Source of the DNA: Phototrophicaceae bacterium
GTDB taxonomy: Bacteria > Chloroflexota > Anaerolineae > Aggregatilineales > Phototrophicaceae
Assembly: GCA_965237765.1 (NCBI GenBank)
Contig: OZ250157.1
Span: forward strand, 1,295,508 to 1,359,507
DNA: 64,000 nucleotides
Reading direction: 5' to 3'
Each line of letters begins with the position of its first letter. Position 1 is the stretch's first letter. Below the pieces are notes generated by a model. It did not search any database and was not told where the DNA came from. It saw only the letters and a program-made list of their open reading frames with translations. Positions 1 to 8,482 of the stretch are shown in pieces. The position numbers were made by a program, and so were the translations under genes.

Positions 1-893
1 TCGACGATGAAAGCCGCGTGCAGGGTGGGCAGCAGGTCAGCCGCTTCCGGCGCCGTGAGCGCGTCTTCCGGCCGCGGCTCGCGCAGGATGTGCTCGATTT
101 CGGCGCGCAGGCGGCTGCCGCTGAGGCGGGCCAGGATCGGTAACGATTCCTGCGCCCAGCGGGCCGTCTCTTCCTCCCAGCGCAGGCCGAGGCGGGCCGC
201 CAGCCGCAAACCGCGCAGGATGCGCGTCGGGTCGTCGCGGAAGCTGGCCGGGTGCAGGGCGCGCAGGCGTCGCTCTTGCAGGTCGCGCTGGCCGCCGCAA
301 GGGTCGAGCAGCTGCCCGAAGGCCGGCGGCGGGCTGAGCTGCAGGGCGAGCGCGTTGACGCTGAAATCGCGCCGCCAGAGGTCCTCTTCGGCCGTGCCGG
401 GGTAGGGCTGGGGCAGCTGGCCGGGGCGCGGGTAACGTTCGCGGCGCGCGTTGGCGAAATCGACCGCGATGTTCTCTATCGCCGCGATGTTCTCTATCGC
501 CGCGATGTTCTCTATCGCCGCGATGTTCTCTATCGCCGCGATGCCGCTCGGTGCCAGCCACTGCGCGGTGCCGAAGCGGGCGTGGGTTCGCAGCTCGCCG
601 CCGAGATCGGCCTGGAGGGCGCGGGCGAATTGGATGGCATCCTGGAGCGAAGGGCCGGCCAGCATCAGGTCCAGCTCATTTCCAGGATAGCCGAGCAGCC
701 AATCACGCACCACACCACCGACGAGGTAAAGGGGGCGCGTGCCGGCACTTCGCGGCCGTAAGAAGCGCGTGCCGGCACTTCGCGGCCGTAAGAAGCGCAC
801 GTCGGCGCGGGCGACGATCTCGAAGAGGAGGGCGGCGCGCTCCGGGCCGAGCTGCTGGCGAGCCTGGGCGTGGGTGAAGGTAGGGGTGATCAT
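1..893 (-). CDS. tRNA nucleotidyltransferase (CCA-adding) / poly(A) polymerase family protein; 3' end runs off the window
   Basis: Own minus-strand translation from ATG at 893..891: MITPTF...LYLVGGVVRDWLLG...FGTAQW...VDFANARRERY...RRDFSVNALA...FRDDPTRILRGLRLAARLG. Not in the supplied track because there is no stop in the window. Carries two in-frame repeat insertions (737-796 and 466-545). Confidence 0.8.
   Translation of the reverse strand, partial: MITPTFTHAQARQQLGPERAALLFEIVARADVRFLRPRSAGTRFLRPRSAGTRPLYLVGGVVRDWLLGYPGNELDLMLAGPSLQDAIQFARALQADLGGELRTHARFGTAQWLAPSGIAAIENIAAIENIAAIENIAAIENIAVDFANARRERYPRPGQLPQPYPGTAEEDLWRRDFSVNALALQLSPPPAFGQLLDPCGGQRDLQERRLRALHPASFRDDPTRILRGLRLAARLGLRWEEETARWAQESLPILARLSGSRLRAEIEHILREPRPEDALTAPEAADLLPTLHAAFIV
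466..545. repeat. 18-bp tandem repeat GCGATGTTCTCTATCGCC, about 4.4 copies, in-frame inside the CCA-enzyme gene (IAAIEN x4)
   Basis: Perfect units at 466-483, 484-501, 502-519 and 520-537, plus a partial unit. The unit has inverted ends GCGAT...ATCGC. Confidence 0.95.
737..796 (+). repeat. Dispersed 30-nt repeat, 2 tandem units (C:G variant), inside the CCA-enzyme gene
   Basis: GCGTGCCGGCACTTCGCGGCCGTAAGAAGC x2. Read on the gene strand as RFLRPRSAGT x2, directly before LYLVGGVVRD. Confidence 0.95.
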
Positions 894-1020
894 GGGGTTA
901 GGATAGCGGGCGATGCGTTGCATCGCAGGCCGGCGCTTTGTGACTGCAGTCGCCGTCGAGAAAAGGGTCAAAGAGCGCATGTTACAATGTGGCCGCGGCC
1001 AGCAATGGATGGGGGCCACT

Positions 1021-1560
1021 ATGGACGAACCGAGGCAAGAATTCAACCAGGCGAAAGCCCTGGCGGTCGTCCTGTATCTGGCGATTCGCACCCCTCGTCC
1101 CAGCTTCATGAGCATCGCCAAACTGATGTACTTCGCGGACAAAACCCATCTGGAGCGCTATGGCCGCCTGATCAGCAGCGATCACTATGTCGCCAGGCAA
1201 CACGGGCCGGTGCCGAGCAACACCTACCAACTGATGCGCGACTCCGGAATCTACAGCCCATATGGCTTTAAGGTCGTCGACGATTACTTCATCGAGGCGA
1301 TTGACGCCCCGGACCTGGGCGAACTGGCGGACCAGGAGGTCCAATGCCTGGATGAGATCATCGCGCGTTTCGGCGACGCGCCTACCTGGTACCTGCAGCA
1401 ACTGAGTCAGGATCGCGCCTGGCAGCGCGCCTGGCAGGGTGGGCAGGAGCAGGGCGAAGCGAGCCACCCGATTCCCGAAGCGGAGCTGCTCCGCATGTTG
1501 TTCGCGGACCAGGGCGAGCAATGGCCGTCCTTTATCCAGGAACTCCGGGACAACCTTTAA
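1021..1560 (+). CDS. Panacea/DUF4065 (SocA/GepA-like) domain protein, putative antitoxin
   Basis: IAKLMYFADKTHLERYGRLISSDHYVARQHGPVPSNTY matches the DUF4065 core as I remember it. The track ORF starts at 913, and ATG 1021 (MDEPRQEF) is my preferred start. Confidence 0.6.
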   Translation: MDEPRQEFNQAKALAVVLYLAIRTPRPSFMSIAKLMYFADKTHLERYGRLISSDHYVARQHGPVPSNTYQLMRDSGIYSPYGFKVVDDYFIEAIDAPDLGELADQEVQCLDEIIARFGDAPTWYLQQLSQDRAWQRAWQGGQEQGEASHPIPEAELLRMLFADQGEQWPSFIQELRDNL

Positions 1561-1976
1561 TGCCCCTCCGCGAGGCAAAAGCCTGGCGTGTCTTCCGTTA
1601 CCAGAATCCGGACGACGAACCGGATGGAGCGTTGATTCTCGCCTTGTGGGTGGCAAGTGACACCATCCATGGAGTCAGGATCCATGCCAAACCGGCGAGG
1701 ATCAAGCCCTTGCAGGAAAGCGAGACGCTCCTCACGCTGGATTTCCTGCCACGACCGCTGGCTTACATCCGTTTCGACACGCTATTCAGCGGCAGCTTCG
1801 AAGCGTTCACCTCGAGCGACCAGGAGAAGAATTGGGTGGTCACGGGCCGCGCGCGCTATCAGGTGCTGGCCAAAGCCCTCAGTCCCGAATCGCGCTTATC
1901 GGGCAGAGTGAAAGGACTTTTGCGGCAGGAAAACCTCGCGTTCTTGAACCATTGGGCGAAGCGATTGCGGCTCTAA
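1560..1976 (+). CDS. Hypothetical protein, candidate toxin partner of the Panacea-domain protein
   Basis: ATG at 1560 overlaps the upstream TAA (TAATG). The 138 aa contain no motif I recognise. The 3' end overlaps the convergent methyltransferase gene by 4 nt. Confidence 0.45.
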   Translation: MPLREAKAWRVFRYQNPDDEPDGALILALWVASDTIHGVRIHAKPARIKPLQESETLLTLDFLPRPLAYIRFDTLFSGSFEAFTSSDQEKNWVVTGRARYQVLAKALSPESRLSGRVKGLLRQENLAFLNHWAKRLRL

Positions 1977-3427
1977 TTTACTCCCGCATCCAACCGCCGC
2001 TGCCAGGCCTGCGGGCGCAGCAGCTCCAGCGTCTCGCCCGCGCCGACCAGCGGCGGTACCGGCGCGCCACGGCGCCCTTCCAGCCAATCCTCCACGCTCC
2101 AGACACCGATGCGCGGCCCGCTCCACCCATTCAGTTGCACGCGCTCCTGAGCGCCGAGGTGGCCGCGCAGTCTATCAGCGATGCGCTCTTCGAGGACAAC
2201 CAGCAGCCCCGCCGCGCAGCCGTTCATCGTGAGCGCGCCGTGGAAGGCATCCAGCACCGGCCGGCCGACCGTTTGCCCGCCTTTGACCTGGAAGCCGAAG
2301 AGCGGTTGCGGCCGTTTGGCGCTGGCGATGACGGCGCGCCCATCCAGCCCGCCATCACCGCTCTGCTTGAAATTCGGCTGGGCGCCGGGGATGAGGCGGA
2401 TCGCCCAGCGCTCGAATTCGTAAGGGGCATTGGCGGCGAGGCGCTGGGCCTGCTCGAAATCGTAGGGGATGCCGCGGATCTGCGGGTCGACGCCGCAACG
2501 GTCGCGCAGGCGGCGGGCCATCAGGTCGACGGCCAAGGGTTCGACATCGATGCCCAACCAGCGACGCCCGAGGTTCTGGGCGGCTTCGACGGCCGTGCCG
2601 CAGCCGCAGAAGGGATCGAGGACGAGGTCGCCCTCGTCGCTGCTGGCCTGGATGATGCGTTCGAGTAGGGCGAGCGGCTTTTGGGTGGGGTAGCCGAGGC
2701 GTTCTTTTGATCTAGAAGAGAGGGTGATCTGCCATACATTATCAATTCGCTTGCCGTCTGGATTTATGTAGTATTTCTTCCCATTATTGGTTCGATAAAT
2801 TCCAATCTCATCACTTTGCCATTTTCGCAGTGTTGTTTTCGGCCATTTCTCTCTTAATACATTGAAGCAGTTTTTTGATTCCTTAGCATAAAACAAAATG
2901 GTGTCCGTATTCTTGATGAAATGTCGCAGTGGGTTGCCAGATGATGTCTGATAATGCCAAATTACTTCGTTCCGAAACTGTCGCGTCCCAAACACCCCAT
3001 CCATCAACAGCTTCAAATAATGCCCGGCAGTCGGGTCGCAGTGCAGGTAAATGCTGCCGCTCTCTTTGAGGACGCGCTTGCAAGCCAGCAGGCGCGCGGC
3101 CATGTAAGCCAGGTAGGCGGGCAGGCCACCCCCGGCGGCGATGTTGCCCCCGGAAGCGAAATTGAGCAAAAAACCCAGCTGCTGGTAGAGGGTGGCGTCG
3201 CGCTCGGCGACGTAATCGAGGGCCTCGTCCTGAGTATCCGACCAGACCCAGGTATCCTGAAAGACGCTGGCCTGGGCCTTGCCGCCGAGCGGGATGTTGT
3301 AATCGCGCTTGGAGTTGAAGGGCGGGTCCAGGTAGATGAGGTCGACACTGGCGGCAGGGATGTCGTCTGTAAGGATGCGCAGGCAATCGCCATAGAAGAG
3401 GGTGTTTTCGGGAGTTGTGGCTTGCAT
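1973..3427 (-). CDS. DNA methyltransferase (N6-adenine/N4-cytosine, beta-class) fused to a C-terminal Mrr-like PD-(D/E)xK nuclease domain
   Basis: Motif IV is IYLDPPFNS and motif I is LDPFCGCGTAVEAAQNLGRRWLGIDV. The C-terminal GDGGLDGRAV...FGFQVKGG resembles the Mrr catalytic core. The central 2700-3010 segment is strikingly low in GC. Confidence 0.85.
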   Translation of the reverse strand: MQATTPENTLFYGDCLRILTDDIPAASVDLIYLDPPFNSKRDYNIPLGGKAQASVFQDTWVWSDTQDEALDYVAERDATLYQQLGFLLNFASGGNIAAGGGLPAYLAYMAARLLACKRVLKESGSIYLHCDPTAGHYLKLLMDGVFGTRQFRNEVIWHYQTSSGNPLRHFIKNTDTILFYAKESKNCFNVLREKWPKTTLRKWQSDEIGIYRTNNGKKYYINPDGKRIDNVWQITLSSRSKERLGYPTQKPLALLERIIQASSDEGDLVLDPFCGCGTAVEAAQNLGRRWLGIDVEPLAVDLMARRLRDRCGVDPQIRGIPYDFEQAQRLAANAPYEFERWAIRLIPGAQPNFKQSGDGGLDGRAVIASAKRPQPLFGFQVKGGQTVGRPVLDAFHGALTMNGCAAGLLVVLEERIADRLRGHLGAQERVQLNGWSGPRIGVWSVEDWLEGRRGAPVPPLVGAGETLELLRPQAWQRRLDAGVN

Positions 3428-3521
3428 AACTCCGCACTATATCGTGGCGGCCCTCCCACGCAAGTTGCCGCTGCCGTCAGCGCGCCGAAACGATAGGTAC
3501 GCGGATGCGTTCGTTTCGCCC

Positions 3522-4082
3522 TCAGCCCTCCTCGTATTCGCGCCAGGGGATGAAGCGCTCGCGGTAGACGAGGTCCTGCCAGTAGCGGCGTTTGGCGGGC
3601 TTCATCACGAAGGAGGGGTTGGGCTGCGGGTGCCCCACACAGAGCACGATCCAGGGCGTGAAGCGCGGCGGCAGGTTGAGGATCTTGCGCAGCGCGGGCA
3701 CGTTGAAGGAGGACACCGGTCCGCTCGCCAGGCCGATGGAATGCGCCGCCAGCGCCATGGTCTGCGCCGCCTGACCCACGTCCATCAGGAAGACGGGGTC
3801 ATCGGCCTCTTCGTCGATGTAGGTGGGGAAGTTGCGCCGGTCGACGCAGACGAAAATGTAGAGGGGCGCGTTCGAATAGATGCCCGGCGAGACGCGGCGA
3901 ATCAGCTCGATCAGCTCCGGGTCCTGCACCGCGAGGAAGCGGGTGGGCAGGTTGTTGCTGCCGGTCGGCGACCAGCGGCCGGCCTCCAGGATGGTCTCCA
4001 GGTCCTGCTGCGAGACCGGTTCGTCGGTCATTTCGCGCACGACGCGGCGCGTCTTGATGTTCTTCAGCACGGGGTTGCTCAT
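3522..4082 (-). CDS. Nitroreductase family protein
   Basis: MSNPVLKNIKTRRVVREMTDEPVSQQDLETILEAGRWSPTGSNNLPTRF is a typical nitroreductase N-terminus. Start chosen at ATG 4082 rather than the track's 4361. Confidence 0.85.
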   Translation of the reverse strand: MSNPVLKNIKTRRVVREMTDEPVSQQDLETILEAGRWSPTGSNNLPTRFLAVQDPELIELIRRVSPGIYSNAPLYIFVCVDRRNFPTYIDEEADDPVFLMDVGQAAQTMALAAHSIGLASGPVSSFNVPALRKILNLPPRFTPWIVLCVGHPQPNPSFVMKPAKRRYWQDLVYRERFIPWREYEEG

Positions 4083-4438
4083 GCTACACCTCCTGTCGGC
4101 CCGATGCTTCGCATCGGCAGTCCGGCGCGCGCGACCAGGCAATCGCCCAGCGCCTCGTTGAGCTCGACCACGATCGCCTTGTATTGGTCCGGCATACCAG
4201 TGATCGTGTGCGAGACCGGGATGCGCTCCAGGGCCACTTCCAGGAGCACCCGCACTTCCGGCGATACGTCGTCGATGACCATCGCGGCCAGGCGCTCGGC
4301 GGCAGTCAGCTGGCGCAGCGGCCCGTAAAGCGCCGGCTCGCGCAGCAACAGCAAGGAGCAACTCAAGAAGAGCGACATCATCTCGACGACCTGGTCTTCC
4401 GTCAGGAATTTCCGTTCCTCATCCATGGGCACCTCCAC
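4079..4438 (-). CDS. Hypothetical protein, translationally coupled to the nitroreductase gene
   Basis: ATGA overlap at 4079-4082 with the downstream nitroreductase start. Coding-like composition but no recognised motif. Confidence 0.5.
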   Translation of the reverse strand: MEVPMDEERKFLTEDQVVEMMSLFLSCSLLLLREPALYGPLRQLTAAERLAAMVIDDVSPEVRVLLEVALERIPVSHTITGMPDQYKAIVVELNEALGDCLVARAGLPMRSIGPTGGVA

Positions 4439-4541
4439 CGCTGCGCGGCACTGCGTTCACCCGGCAGTATAACACCGGCCGGCTGGGCGCTGCCACCGAT
4501 CTCGTTTCCCATACAATGCCTGTTATGTGGGTATTGGTGAG

Positions 4542-5963: not shown

Positions 5964-7622
5964 ATGGCGGCGCTCGCGAGCCTAGTATTCGCAAAGGCGG
6001 ATATCCTGCTTGCGCTACTGCTCTACCCGCTGCTCGGGTGGGTTTACTGGCGTTGGCTGCGGCCGCATTTGCCTGCGCCGGCGCGCTTTCTTTTTTACTC
6101 GCTCCTCGGCGGTCAGCTGTTGTTGCTGGTGGCTTTCGCGGCGACGTTAGAGCAGTACGGTAGTGACCTGCGCTGGTTGTGGCATCTCGATGGCGAATGG
6201 AATATCGTTGCGAGCTTCGCGGCGCTGCAGCTGGCACTCGTAGGTAGCCTGGCGCTGGTGGGCGCCCGGTCGCTATTCCCCCGGGGCGATTGGCGCTATT
6301 GGCTGGCCGTGAGCGTCAGCTTTTACCTGATGGCTGGCTATGAGTATTTATCGATACAAGCGGTGGCTCCTGCGACTATCCTGCGCGCTGTCCTGGGTGG
6401 AAGTGCGTTGGGGTTGGCGCTGGCGACGATCGTATGGTTGCCGCGTGTGGCAGGAGCACAGGCGCGTTTTGGCCGTTGGCTCGTCGCCGGCCTCGCGCTG
6501 AGCGTGTTGGGTGCTGAGATATTGGACCGTTTCGAGAACCTGTGTGTACCAGCGGGCATTTTAGGGGCGACGAAGCGTTGTGTGTGGCTTTTGCCGCTCG
6601 AAGAAGTGGCGGAAAACGCAGGTGCCCTGATCGCTGTGCTGGCGGCGCTGGGGATCACGCTGCATGCCCGGTCGGGCGCGGAATGGCGAGCGGTGGGGAA
6701 GCGTACGCTGGTGGCGCTCGGCCTGGCCGCACTGGTGCTCTACGCATTGGGCTGGCTAATCATGCCGCCGGCCCAACGCATTTTCCTGGATAACCGTCCG
6801 GCGATACTGACCGTACAGGGCGTTGAGCATGATCCTCTGGTCGCGGGAGAGGAGATAAAAATACAAGTTGAGCTAACGGCCCGCAAAGCGTTGCCGGCGC
6901 CGATCGGTTATTCGTTGCAGTTGACCGACTCTTTGAACGGAGAGGTGCTGGCATCTGTAGATCGGTGGTCGAAACGCCGGCCGGAGCGTTGGCCGGTGGA
7001 GGAGGTGGTAGCGCAGGAGCTGACGCTCCATATCCCAGAAGATGCGCCAGTGAACCGCGTGCTCTGGTTGGCGATGAGTCTCTGGTGGCATGATGGCGTG
7101 AATTTTTCGCCGCTGTCTCTTGACGCTGGCGAGTGGCAGCAAGTAACGGAGACACTCGTCAAGATCTCGGAAGTGATCTTGCAGGCGCCGACGGTGGAAG
7201 AGATGGAAGATGTGGGCAATACCTTCGCGACGGGTTTCACCCTTTTGCGCGCGGATTACCCCACTACAGCGCGGGCAGGGGAAGAATTTGCGGTCACTTT
7301 CCATTGGCAAGCGGAAGCGGCTGGGCAAGAAGATTGGCAACAGTTCTTGCATTTCACCCATGAAGAAAGCGGCGCGCTCTGGAATCACGACCAGCCGCCA
7401 CTCGGCGAACGCCTGCCGACGCACCTCTGGTATACGGGATTGGTAGACCAGGAGCGCTGGCAATTCACCCTGCCGGAAGATCTGGCGCCAGGTCGCTATC
7501 AGGTCCACACCGGCCTGTACCGTCTGTCGGATTTGCAGCGCGCGCCGGCCTGGGATGCGGCGGGGTTGCCCTGGCCGGAAGCGAAAGTAGCGCTGGGCAC
7601 GATCGAGATCGTCGCGCCTTGA
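5964..7622 (+). CDS. Integral membrane protein with a large extracytoplasmic C-terminal region
   Basis: Multiple hydrophobic segments in the N-terminal half. The C-terminal module (FAVTFHWQ...LPTHLWYTG...GRYQVHTGLYR) resembles the C-terminus of the DUF2723 protein at 41138-43123. ATG 5964 is preceded by GGGAG. Confidence 0.6.
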   Translation: MAALASLVFAKADILLALLLYPLLGWVYWRWLRPHLPAPARFLFYSLLGGQLLLLVAFAATLEQYGSDLRWLWHLDGEWNIVASFAALQLALVGSLALVGARSLFPRGDWRYWLAVSVSFYLMAGYEYLSIQAVAPATILRAVLGGSALGLALATIVWLPRVAGAQARFGRWLVAGLALSVLGAEILDRFENLCVPAGILGATKRCVWLLPLEEVAENAGALIAVLAALGITLHARSGAEWRAVGKRTLVALGLAALVLYALGWLIMPPAQRIFLDNRPAILTVQGVEHDPLVAGEEIKIQVELTARKALPAPIGYSLQLTDSLNGEVLASVDRWSKRRPERWPVEEVVAQELTLHIPEDAPVNRVLWLAMSLWWHDGVNFSPLSLDAGEWQQVTETLVKISEVILQAPTVEEMEDVGNTFATGFTLLRADYPTTARAGEEFAVTFHWQAEAAGQEDWQQFLHFTHEESGALWNHDQPPLGERLPTHLWYTGLVDQERWQFTLPEDLAPGRYQVHTGLYRLSDLQRAPAWDAAGLPWPEAKVALGTIEIVAP

Positions 7623-7723
7623 ACGGCACTGCCGGGGAAACGGTTGTTTGCCCAACCGGCCCGGTTGCCCAACCGACATGCATCCATATACTGAATCGGG
7701 AGTGGAAACGGAAGCAGCGGCAT

Positions 7724-8482
7724 ATGCCCGAAGAATTTGGCGGCTTCCCGGCCGCCAGCCAGCAATTCCTGGCGGAGCTGGCTGCCAACAACCGGCGCGA
7801 ATGGTTTCAGGAGCAGCGCGAGCGCTATCAGCGCGACCTGCTGGCGCCGGCGCAGGCCTTCTGCGTCGCCCTTGGTGAGCAGCTGCAAGCGATTGCGCCC
7901 GGCATCCGCTATGACCCGCGCGCGAATGGACAAGGCTCGCTGCTGCGCATCCAACGCGACACGCGCTTCTTACGGCCGCGAAGTGCCGGCACGCGCTTCA
8001 GCCGCGACAAATCGCCCTATAAGACCGTCGTCGGCATACTCTTTTGGGAAGGGCCGGGCAAGAAGATGGCACATCCCGCTTTCGGCTTTGAGTTGAGCGC
8101 GGCCGGCGCGCGCATGATGGCGGGCATGTTCGCCTTCGATAAAACGATGCTCGCCGCCTACCGCGCCGCCGTCGCTGATAGCCAGCGCGGTGCTGAATTG
8201 GAGAGGGCCATCGCCGCCCTGCGCGCCGCCGGCGAATATGAAATCAGGGGCGAGCGATACGCGCGGGTGCCGGCGGGGTATGCGGCCGACCACCCGCGCG
8301 CGGATTGGCTGCGCTATAAGAACCTGTACGCCGCTATGCCGCCCATCCCAGCGGCGCTCATCACGACGCCTGAATTGGTGGAGCATTGCCGCGTGCTCTG
8401 TGAAGGGGCGGCGCCCTTATTCGCCTGGCTGGTAGCGCTACAGTCGGGTACGGAAAATCATTTCATCGTAGGAGGTGGCTGA
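7724..8482 (+). CDS. DUF2461 (TIGR02453) family protein
   Basis: FGGFPAASQQFLAELAANNRREWFQEQRERY and RDTRF..SRDKSPYKT motifs. A 30-nt repeat (7965-7994) splits the RDxRFSxDKxPYK motif. Confidence 0.75.
   Translation: MPEEFGGFPAASQQFLAELAANNRREWFQEQRERYQRDLLAPAQAFCVALGEQLQAIAPGIRYDPRANGQGSLLRIQRDTRFLRPRSAGTRFSRDKSPYKTVVGILFWEGPGKKMAHPAFGFELSAAGARMMAGMFAFDKTMLAAYRAAVADSQRGAELERAIAALRAAGEYEIRGERYARVPAGYAADHPRADWLRYKNLYAAMPPIPAALITTPELVEHCRVLCEGAAPLFAWLVALQSGTENHFIVGGG
7965..7994 (-). repeat. Dispersed 30-nt repeat, single unit (C:G), in-frame inside the DUF2461 gene
   Basis: GCTTCTTACGGCCGCGAAGTGCCGGCACGC, flanked on both sides by ACGCGCTTC. Confidence 0.95.

Follow-up and report, generated by a model that had tools for sequence, protein, structure and literature searches.

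The 64,000-nucleotide stretch of contig OZ250157.1 (assembly GCA_965237765.1) from a Phototrophicaceae bacterium of the phylum Chloroflexota that was analyzed here, referred to below as the window, carries close to its beginning a two-gene locus that we read as a candidate PanAT toxin-antitoxin (TA) module. The first gene, panA (1021..1560, plus strand), encodes a 179-amino-acid (aa) Panacea-domain (DUF4065) putative antitoxin, recognized by a Pfam match and homolog alignment, and the second gene, panT (1560..1976, plus strand), encodes a basic 138-aa putative toxin with a predicted MazF/PemK/CcdB-like beta-barrel and a C-terminal helical extension, as judged from its homologs, AlphaFold2 (AF2) models, Foldseek searches, a chain of hhalign profile alignments and the ratio of nonsynonymous to synonymous substitution rates (dN/dS). 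The two genes are joined by a stop/start overlap, TAATG (1558..1562, plus strand), indicative of translational coupling, and a fused DNA methyltransferase-nuclease gene converges on panT from the minus strand. The initial annotation of this DNA had described a Panacea/DUF4065 gene, the TAATG overlap and a 4-nucleotide (nt) convergent overlap with the fusion gene, all of which were confirmed, and had proposed that the Panacea gene and its downstream partner, which it could not assign to any family, form a PanA-type TA pair with possibly a new toxin family.

The domain identity of PanA is established by its match to the Pfam family SocA_Panacea (PF13274; E = 5.9e-18, 66.3 bits against a cut-off of 25.7, residues 33-135), and panA is the only Panacea gene in the source genome. 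The protein is acidic, with an isoelectric point (pI) of 4.7 in the window and of 4.7-5.8 among the loci, and has a conserved acidic C-terminal tail ending in ...WPxFIxELRE(S/N)L. Gene callers occasionally report a 215-aa version starting at ATG 913 (P0019); the start at 1021 is favored by a conserved Shine-Dalgarno sequence (GAGGAGG) and by the aligned N-termini of the homologs. At the junction, the TAA of panA (1558-1560) and the ATG of panT (1560-1562) have base 1560 in common. The window has TAATG at this site and 7 other loci have TGATG, the overlap being kept in all 8 extracted junctions, and a ninth locus (L066) displays an identical 1-nt overlap according to its gene coordinates, which together establish the coupled arrangement. 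An in-frame ATG is also present upstream, at 1521; panT likely starts at 1560, because the overlapping ATG is the first codon of all homologs, which share MP(I/L)RE as a conserved N-terminal sequence.

The linkage of the 2 genes is strict. A survey of the neighborhoods of panT homologs, as advised in the initial annotation, revealed a PanA gene directly 5' of panT, on the same strand and with a 1-nt overlap, in 9 of the 9 contexts read, and no panT without an adjacent PanA was found among these contexts; the concern that homologs of the partner might not be associated with antitoxin-like genes is thus not borne out. The pair occurs in at least 2 unrelated flanking contexts, namely, beside a CCA-adding-enzyme-like (PolyA_pol) gene, as in the window, and between peptidase S9 and glycosyltransferase (GT4) genes (L001-L006, genome G001). 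Conversely, an orphan PanA paralog with 57% identity and without a partner was identified in L055 (3001-5191), on a contig that also carries a complete PanAT pair. The presence of an orphan antitoxin but of no orphan partner is an asymmetry typical of TA pairs, expected if the partner is harmful alone. The 2 proteins are also complementary in charge, with PanT being strongly basic (pI 10.0 in the window, 9.9-11.3 among the loci), and the G+C content (GC) over the pair, approximately 0.59-0.62, is lower than the 0.65-0.73 of its flanks.

Two further loci illustrate variation in the pairing. In L051 (169-1145), the operon is mosaic, with a PanA 89-90% identical to those of L007 and L053 (synonymous divergence, dS, 0.5-0.6) and a partner just 47-49% identical, with saturated dS and low dN/dS, which suggests recombination or allele exchange at the panA-panT junction. 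In L056 (456-1264), a PanA 52% identical to that of the window overlaps by 4 nt the gene for a 100-aa protein that is hydrophobic at its N-terminus and ends in a charged tail of coiled-coil-like character; this protein was rejected as a PanT relative, being unrelated and coiled-coil-like, and partner swapping therefore occurs even between PanA proteins that are fairly closely related.

When 5.8 billion protein clusters were searched with a word index, 13 PanT homologs of 138-140 aa and 58-90% identity were identified, all of them unnamed and free of Pfam domains; an exhaustive phmmer search of 1.84 billion representatives yielded just 3 genuine clusters. Two candidates were rejected, namely, P0017 (1202 aa), which was a low-complexity repeat artefact, and P0018, a frameshifted fragment joining the end of PanA to the start of PanT. 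The alignment of the family is full-length and contains 40 invariant columns. Pairwise Nei-Gojobori estimates for 8 loci gave dN/dS values of 0.11-0.40 for panT and 0.09-0.32 for panA, with dS often near saturation, establishing that both genes are under purifying selection. PanT had no matches in Pfam, NCBIfam, PADLOC or PHROGs at E ≤ 1, and tblastn searches with PanT against phage and plasmid collections returned nothing. The distribution of panT is patchy: of the 3 species in the genus, 2 carry the gene, which was absent from the whole genomes of the 58 other relatives searched, and 4 of the 401 genomes sampled from the phylum contained PanA relatives. By these searches, the PanT family is confined to one genus-level lineage of Chloroflexota.

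The structure prediction proposed in the initial annotation led to known toxins. The AF2 model of PanT obtained from the 13-sequence alignment (predicted local distance difference test, pLDDT, 84.4; predicted template modeling score, pTM, 0.79) consists of a beta-barrel-like core spanning approximately residues 9-106, in which strands at 9-14, 24-31, 35-42, 55-59 and 67-79 are followed by a helix at 96-106, and of an additional helical extension at the C-terminus, at about 113-137. When this model was compared to the PDB with Foldseek, the endoribonuclease toxins MazF, MoxT and EndoA accounted for nearly all of the top 40 matches, with E-values of ~5e-3 and target-normalized template modeling (TM) scores of 0.6-0.7, followed by CcdB (7epj, rank 32) and the type III toxins ToxN/CptN; in a viral library, it matched PemK-like proteins. 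A second AF2 model, built from the most divergent member of the family (P0016, 49% identity; pLDDT 72), had MazF or CcdB as its top 31 PDB matches, with the CcdB chain 4elz_D at rank 11. For both models combined, the top PDB matches had E-values of 4-5e-3 and target-normalized TM scores of 0.58-0.70, and MazF-type RNases ranked above CcdB in both searches.

Profile comparisons point in the same direction. Downstream of more distant PanA genes on metagenome contigs L057-L061, which have 37-42% identity, lie genes for proteins of 124-151 aa, either overlapping by 1 nt or separated by 14 nt; around these proteins, an alignment was built (family A5, the named members of which are cyanobacterial). 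The PanT family (A1) aligned with A5 in hhalign at 59.7% (E = 8.9e-5, 112 columns), and A5 aligned with 27 canonical PemK/MazF proteins at 90.7% (E = 1.3e-6, 110 columns), whereas controls with reversed sequences and unrelated families remained at or below 1.7% (E ≥ 0.03). This suggests a remote profile link between PanT and PemK that is transitive only, through A5. The fold and the chained sequence evidence agree, and PanT is accordingly predicted to be a very divergent member of the MazF/PemK superfamily. Thus, the suggestion of a new toxin family stands at the level of sequence families, given that no library match was found, but not at the level of toxin class, for which 2 models display the MazF/PemK/CcdB fold, with CcdB matched less well, and the profile chain leads to PemK: PanT is a new lineage-restricted sequence family and not a new toxin class.

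We take the catalytic residues of MazF to be an Arg, R25 in Bacillus subtilis and R29 in Escherichia coli, and a Thr/Ser. Through the chained alignments, the catalytic Arg (the R of K-T-R-P) corresponds to an invariant Lys of A5 and to position 24 of PanT, these residue equivalences resting on low-identity alignments that could be shifted by a few positions. Position 24 is Lys in 11 of the 13 members of the family, Thr in P0005 and Ala in the window (GCG, 1629-1631). At the nearby positions 41-43, where an I-N-S motif is conserved, the PanT of the window has I-H-A, with Ala in place of the candidate Ser43, which makes this protein the sole member of the 13 without both Lys24 and Ser43.

Upstream of the pair, the sequence TGTTACAATG (980..989, plus strand), located 32 nt 5' of the panA ATG, resembles an extended -10 element (TGnTACAAT) of the panA-panT operon. 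All but one of its bases are invariant in 8 of the 8 upstream regions that were aligned, in contrast to its variable flanks, and it would be a candidate promoter. A sigma-70 two-hexamer scan gave no promoter match at this locus, because no -35 element is present. The element is embedded in an imperfect inverted repeat (975..992, plus strand; arms 975-980 and 987-992), in which 85% of cells are paired across the 8 loci and 2 pairs are changed on both sides, a level of covariation that was reached by 16 of 500 shuffles; the repeat could possibly be an operator or an RNA hairpin. It is followed by a Shine-Dalgarno-like sequence 5' of panA, GGATGGGG in the window and GAGGAGGG in relatives (1008..1015, plus strand), recognized in the aligned upstream sequences of 8 loci. 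Rfam returned nothing credible on the locus. No terminator was found between the convergent panT and methyltransferase-nuclease genes, and the sole terminator-like site, inside panA, was dismissed as being at chance level.

The convergent gene (1973..3427, minus strand) encodes a 484-aa fusion of an N6/N4 DNA methyltransferase and an Mrr_cat (PD-(D/E)xK) nuclease, hereinafter MTase-Mrr (Pfam N6_N4_Mtase, E = 1.1e-47, and Mrr_cat, E = 5.8e-06; PADLOC MTase_II, E = 3.1e-64), and overlaps panT by 4 nt (1973-1976). Its GC drops to 0.47 at 2600-3000, between methyltransferase motifs IV and I, where target recognition is likely to reside, compared to 0.6-0.7 in the rest of the gene, a drop that would fit an exchange of the specificity domain. 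PanA(T) and MTase-Mrr are neighbors in 3 genomic contexts, in one of them as a relic of approximately 130 nt. Between the CCA-enzyme and nitroreductase genes, PanAT and MTase-Mrr are present (the window, L010, L011 and L052); between DUF6092 and YceG, the orphan PanA2 lies 10 nt from a convergent, 65%-identical MTase-Mrr paralog (L055); and between peptidase S9 and GT4, the relocated pair is accompanied by ~130 nt of the 3' end of MTase-Mrr (L001, 6452-6580, corresponding to G001 C31; L050, 5872-5973). Given the relic and the orphan PanA2 beside an MTase-Mrr gene, PanA(T) and MTase-Mrr have moved as a block. In L007 (6511-7944), an MTase-Mrr homolog (75% identity, tblastn) was not called as one gene and is apparently disrupted, with PanAT intact beside it; in L008, which comes from a sister sample, the MTase-Mrr call is shortened to 279 aa. 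The intact state of the pair where MTase-Mrr has been deleted (L001) or apparently disrupted (L007) argues that the pair is maintained independently.

As judged from the compared genomes, the interval from the CCA-enzyme gene to the nitroreductase-DUF6092-YceG block (window positions 894-4500; compared with L048, L049, L053, L011 and L012) is a variable defense hotspot, in line with the defense-like neighborhood noted in the initial annotation. G002 has nothing at this site, its CCA-enzyme gene lying directly against YceG; in G001, the interval is occupied by a Type ISP restriction-modification (RM) enzyme (1047 aa), and elsewhere it contains PanAT and MTase-Mrr, in some cases with Tsp45I, GmrSD, HNH or DUF7380/DUF4209 genes nearby. 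The CCA-enzyme gene itself contains in-frame repeats, an 18-nt unit present in 4.4 copies, which encodes IAAIEN, and a 30-nt unit that is duplicated and translates to RFLRPRSAGT (window positions 466-545 and 739-798). In L010 (5038-5358), the spacer 5' of panA is taken up by an array of this 30-nt unit, and copies of the same unit are found in further genes of the window, e.g., at 7619-8482.

Considering the strict linkage, the coupling, the charge complementarity, the patchy distribution and the orphan-antitoxin paralog, which all support the initially proposed TA pair, we favor the reading that the locus is a functional type II PanAT module with a toxin of the MazF superfamily, with a probability of roughly 0.65. 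In such a module, a single transcript, probably initiated at the conserved extended -10 element at 980-988, would encode the acidic PanA first, and the overlapping TAATG would couple its translation to that of the basic, 138-aa PanT. PanA would most likely neutralize PanT by binding it directly, possibly by means of the conserved acidic tail at the C-terminus of PanA. PanT, the putative toxin, once freed by a presumed trigger, would most likely arrest growth as MazF does, by RNA cleavage and a block of translation. Residing in a variable defense hotspot, the module has moved together with an RM-type gene, and its likely roles are abortive-infection defense and/or stabilization of the islet.

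Several observations weigh against this reading. Three of the 5 AF2 models of the first run were of low confidence, 2 being confident, and the underlying alignment is shallow (effective number of sequences 1.8); the Foldseek E-values are modest (~5e-3), with query-normalized TM scores of 0.5-0.55. Direct hhalign comparison of the PanT family with the 27 canonical PemK/MazF proteins, which come from the same taxonomic order, gave 0.3%, Pfam PemK_toxin (PF02452) was not matched by PanT at E ≤ 1 or by P0015 and P0016 at E ≤ 10, and the best E-value of a PDB profile search with the PanT sequence, 0.64, is noise. Furthermore, the canonical Arg/Thr pair of MazF is not evident in the PanT family, the allele in the window could be weakened, and PanA lacks a DNA-binding domain, which leaves autoregulation unexplained. 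Could the ORF at 1560-1976 be a chance open frame in GC-rich DNA, where spurious ORFs are abundant, as the lack of any family match might suggest and as the initial annotation had allowed? The conservation pattern already refutes this: 13 homologs align over their full length with 40 invariant residues, dN/dS is far below 1 while dS reaches saturation, the stop/start overlap is conserved, and a fold is predicted confidently. The target of the toxin leaves more room for doubt. MazF and CcdB belong to one fold, CcdB chains are among the matches of both models (7epj at rank 32 and 4elz_D at rank 11), and the catalytic Arg/Thr pair of MazF is not clearly conserved, so that PanT might be a CcdB-like gyrase poison or act on another non-RNA target rather than as a MazF-type endoribonuclease. 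We consider this improbable, because MazF-type RNases rank above CcdB in both fold searches, the sequence chain ends at PemK/MazF, the strongly basic character of PanT (pI 10-11) suits RNA binding, and validated MazF-like PanTs block translation (Kurata et al. 2022, PMC8832971).

The peculiar allele of the window raises a different doubt, namely, that the module has been disarmed or domesticated and is a remnant in which PanT has lost catalytic residues (Ala24, His42-Ala43) and the pair is kept for another role or by inertia. PanT of the window is alone among the 13 in lacking both Lys24 and Ser43, Lys24 aligns with the catalytic Arg of MazF across 2 profile alignments, and the Lys-to-Ala change requires 2 base changes and hence is no simple sequencing error. 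Nevertheless, the residue equivalence derives from low-identity alignments and may be off by a few positions, the panT ORF, the coupling and the PanA gene are intact, the dN/dS of this allele against its relatives is 0.20-0.34, and the 90%-identical P0004 retains Lys24; a remnant thus seems an unlikely description of the locus. It is also unlikely that PanA, PanT and MTase-Mrr constitute one coupled three-gene defense unit, in which the TA pair would guard the RM enzyme and fire when a phage disables it, like PrrC with EcoprrI, or would act as an addiction module holding the MTase-Mrr gene in place, or in which PanA might regulate the nuclease. Such a unit would be in keeping with the convergent neighbors recurring in 3 different contexts, with the lack of a terminator separating them, and with the DNA-modification enzymes and nucleases that occur as occasional third genes of PanAT systems (Kurata et al. 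2022). However, every case comes from one genus-level lineage, such that the linkage may be inherited rather than selected; the pair is intact and under purifying selection where MTase-Mrr has been deleted (G001/L001) or apparently disrupted (L007); distant cyanobacterial PanA-partner pairs have no such neighbor; and convergent genes are not co-transcribed. A more specific and speculative variant, to which we give little credence, is that the Panacea protein would sense the state of the RM enzyme or a phage anti-restriction factor and release the MazF-like toxin as a second, abortive line of defense, the Ala24 allele being then disarmed; consistent with it are the persistence of the 3 genes or their relics together through at least 2 rearrangements and the recurrence of an orphan PanA beside an MTase-Mrr paralog.

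If the locus is a PanAT module as we favor, it represents a further branch, restricted to one lineage and orphan in sequence, of the MazF-like toxins neutralized by Panacea antitoxins, and indicates that such orphans can be tied to PemK via an intermediate family of PanA partners. The locus is also a clean natural case of hotspot content being swapped between sister species, with the site being empty, occupied by a Type ISP RM enzyme, or occupied by PanAT and the MTase-nuclease fusion, as well as of a TA pair that moved with an RM-type gene and then outlived that gene. The natural Lys24Ala/Ser43Ala allele provides a ready-made probe of which residues matter in the PanT family. The current picture of PanAT systems is unchanged.

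The locus can be compared with several known systems. In common with SocAB, the type VI TA system of Caulobacter of which SocA is the founding Panacea protein, the antitoxin has a SocA/Panacea domain; yet, PanT shows no relationship to SocB, there is no sign of a mechanism involving a ClpXP adaptor, and membership was rejected based on the NCBIfam SocA equivalog NF047745 (33 bits against a cut-off of 190). CcdB of CcdAB belongs to the same fold superfamily and is among the fold matches of PanT, but ranks below MazF and has no sequence link to PanT. The similarity to MazEF, PemIK and Kid-Kis extends to a predicted SH3-like barrel with a helix, a basic toxin and an acidic antitoxin, and an antitoxin-first bicistronic operon; the differences are that the antitoxin is a Panacea protein rather than of the MazE/AbrB or ribbon-helix-helix type, that PF02452 is not matched and that the Arg/Thr pair is not evident. 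A separate canonical PemK is encoded elsewhere in the source genome. The cyanobacterial family A5, to which hypothetical proteins from Spirulina sp. CCY15215 and Cyanobacteria bacterium UBA12227 belong, is likewise encoded directly 3' of PanA and has its motifs in the same order as PanT, a KxKF-hydrophobic strand, GFFINS and LxxDSxV. It differs from PanT in sequence (~17% identity), in its length of 119-151 aa, in its invariant Lys21, Lys23, Asn40 and Ser41 and 2 Cys, and in being clearly linked to PemK (90.7%), whereas the PanT family has no direct link.

The closest counterparts are PanAT systems in which the toxin is cryptic and MazF/PemK-like. PanAT systems were defined, with 88 predicted toxin clusters, by Kurata et al. 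2022 (PMC8832971), who validated PanA pairs with toxins that lack a domain-database (CDD) match, are MazF-like by HHpred and block protein synthesis; in Dataset S1 of that study, clusters T5 and T6 are MazF/EndoA/PemK-like, and the validated pair of Pseudomonas moraviensis consists of an antitoxin gene followed by a toxin gene with a gap of -1. Stand-alone Panacea proteins have been proposed to neutralize directly and maybe to act as sensors (Ernits et al. 2023, PMC10440598). As in the T5 and T6 systems (P. moraviensis and also Bifidobacterium ruminantium), the locus described here is a small mobile two-gene unit with a stand-alone Panacea gene 5', the toxin gene 3' and a 1-nt overlap between them, and its toxin, without a domain-database match, displays structural similarity of the MazF type. 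Compared by description rather than by sequence, it differs from them in that PanT reaches PemK only through an intermediate family and is a 138-aa protein with a predicted extra C-terminal helical extension, restricted to one genus-level lineage.

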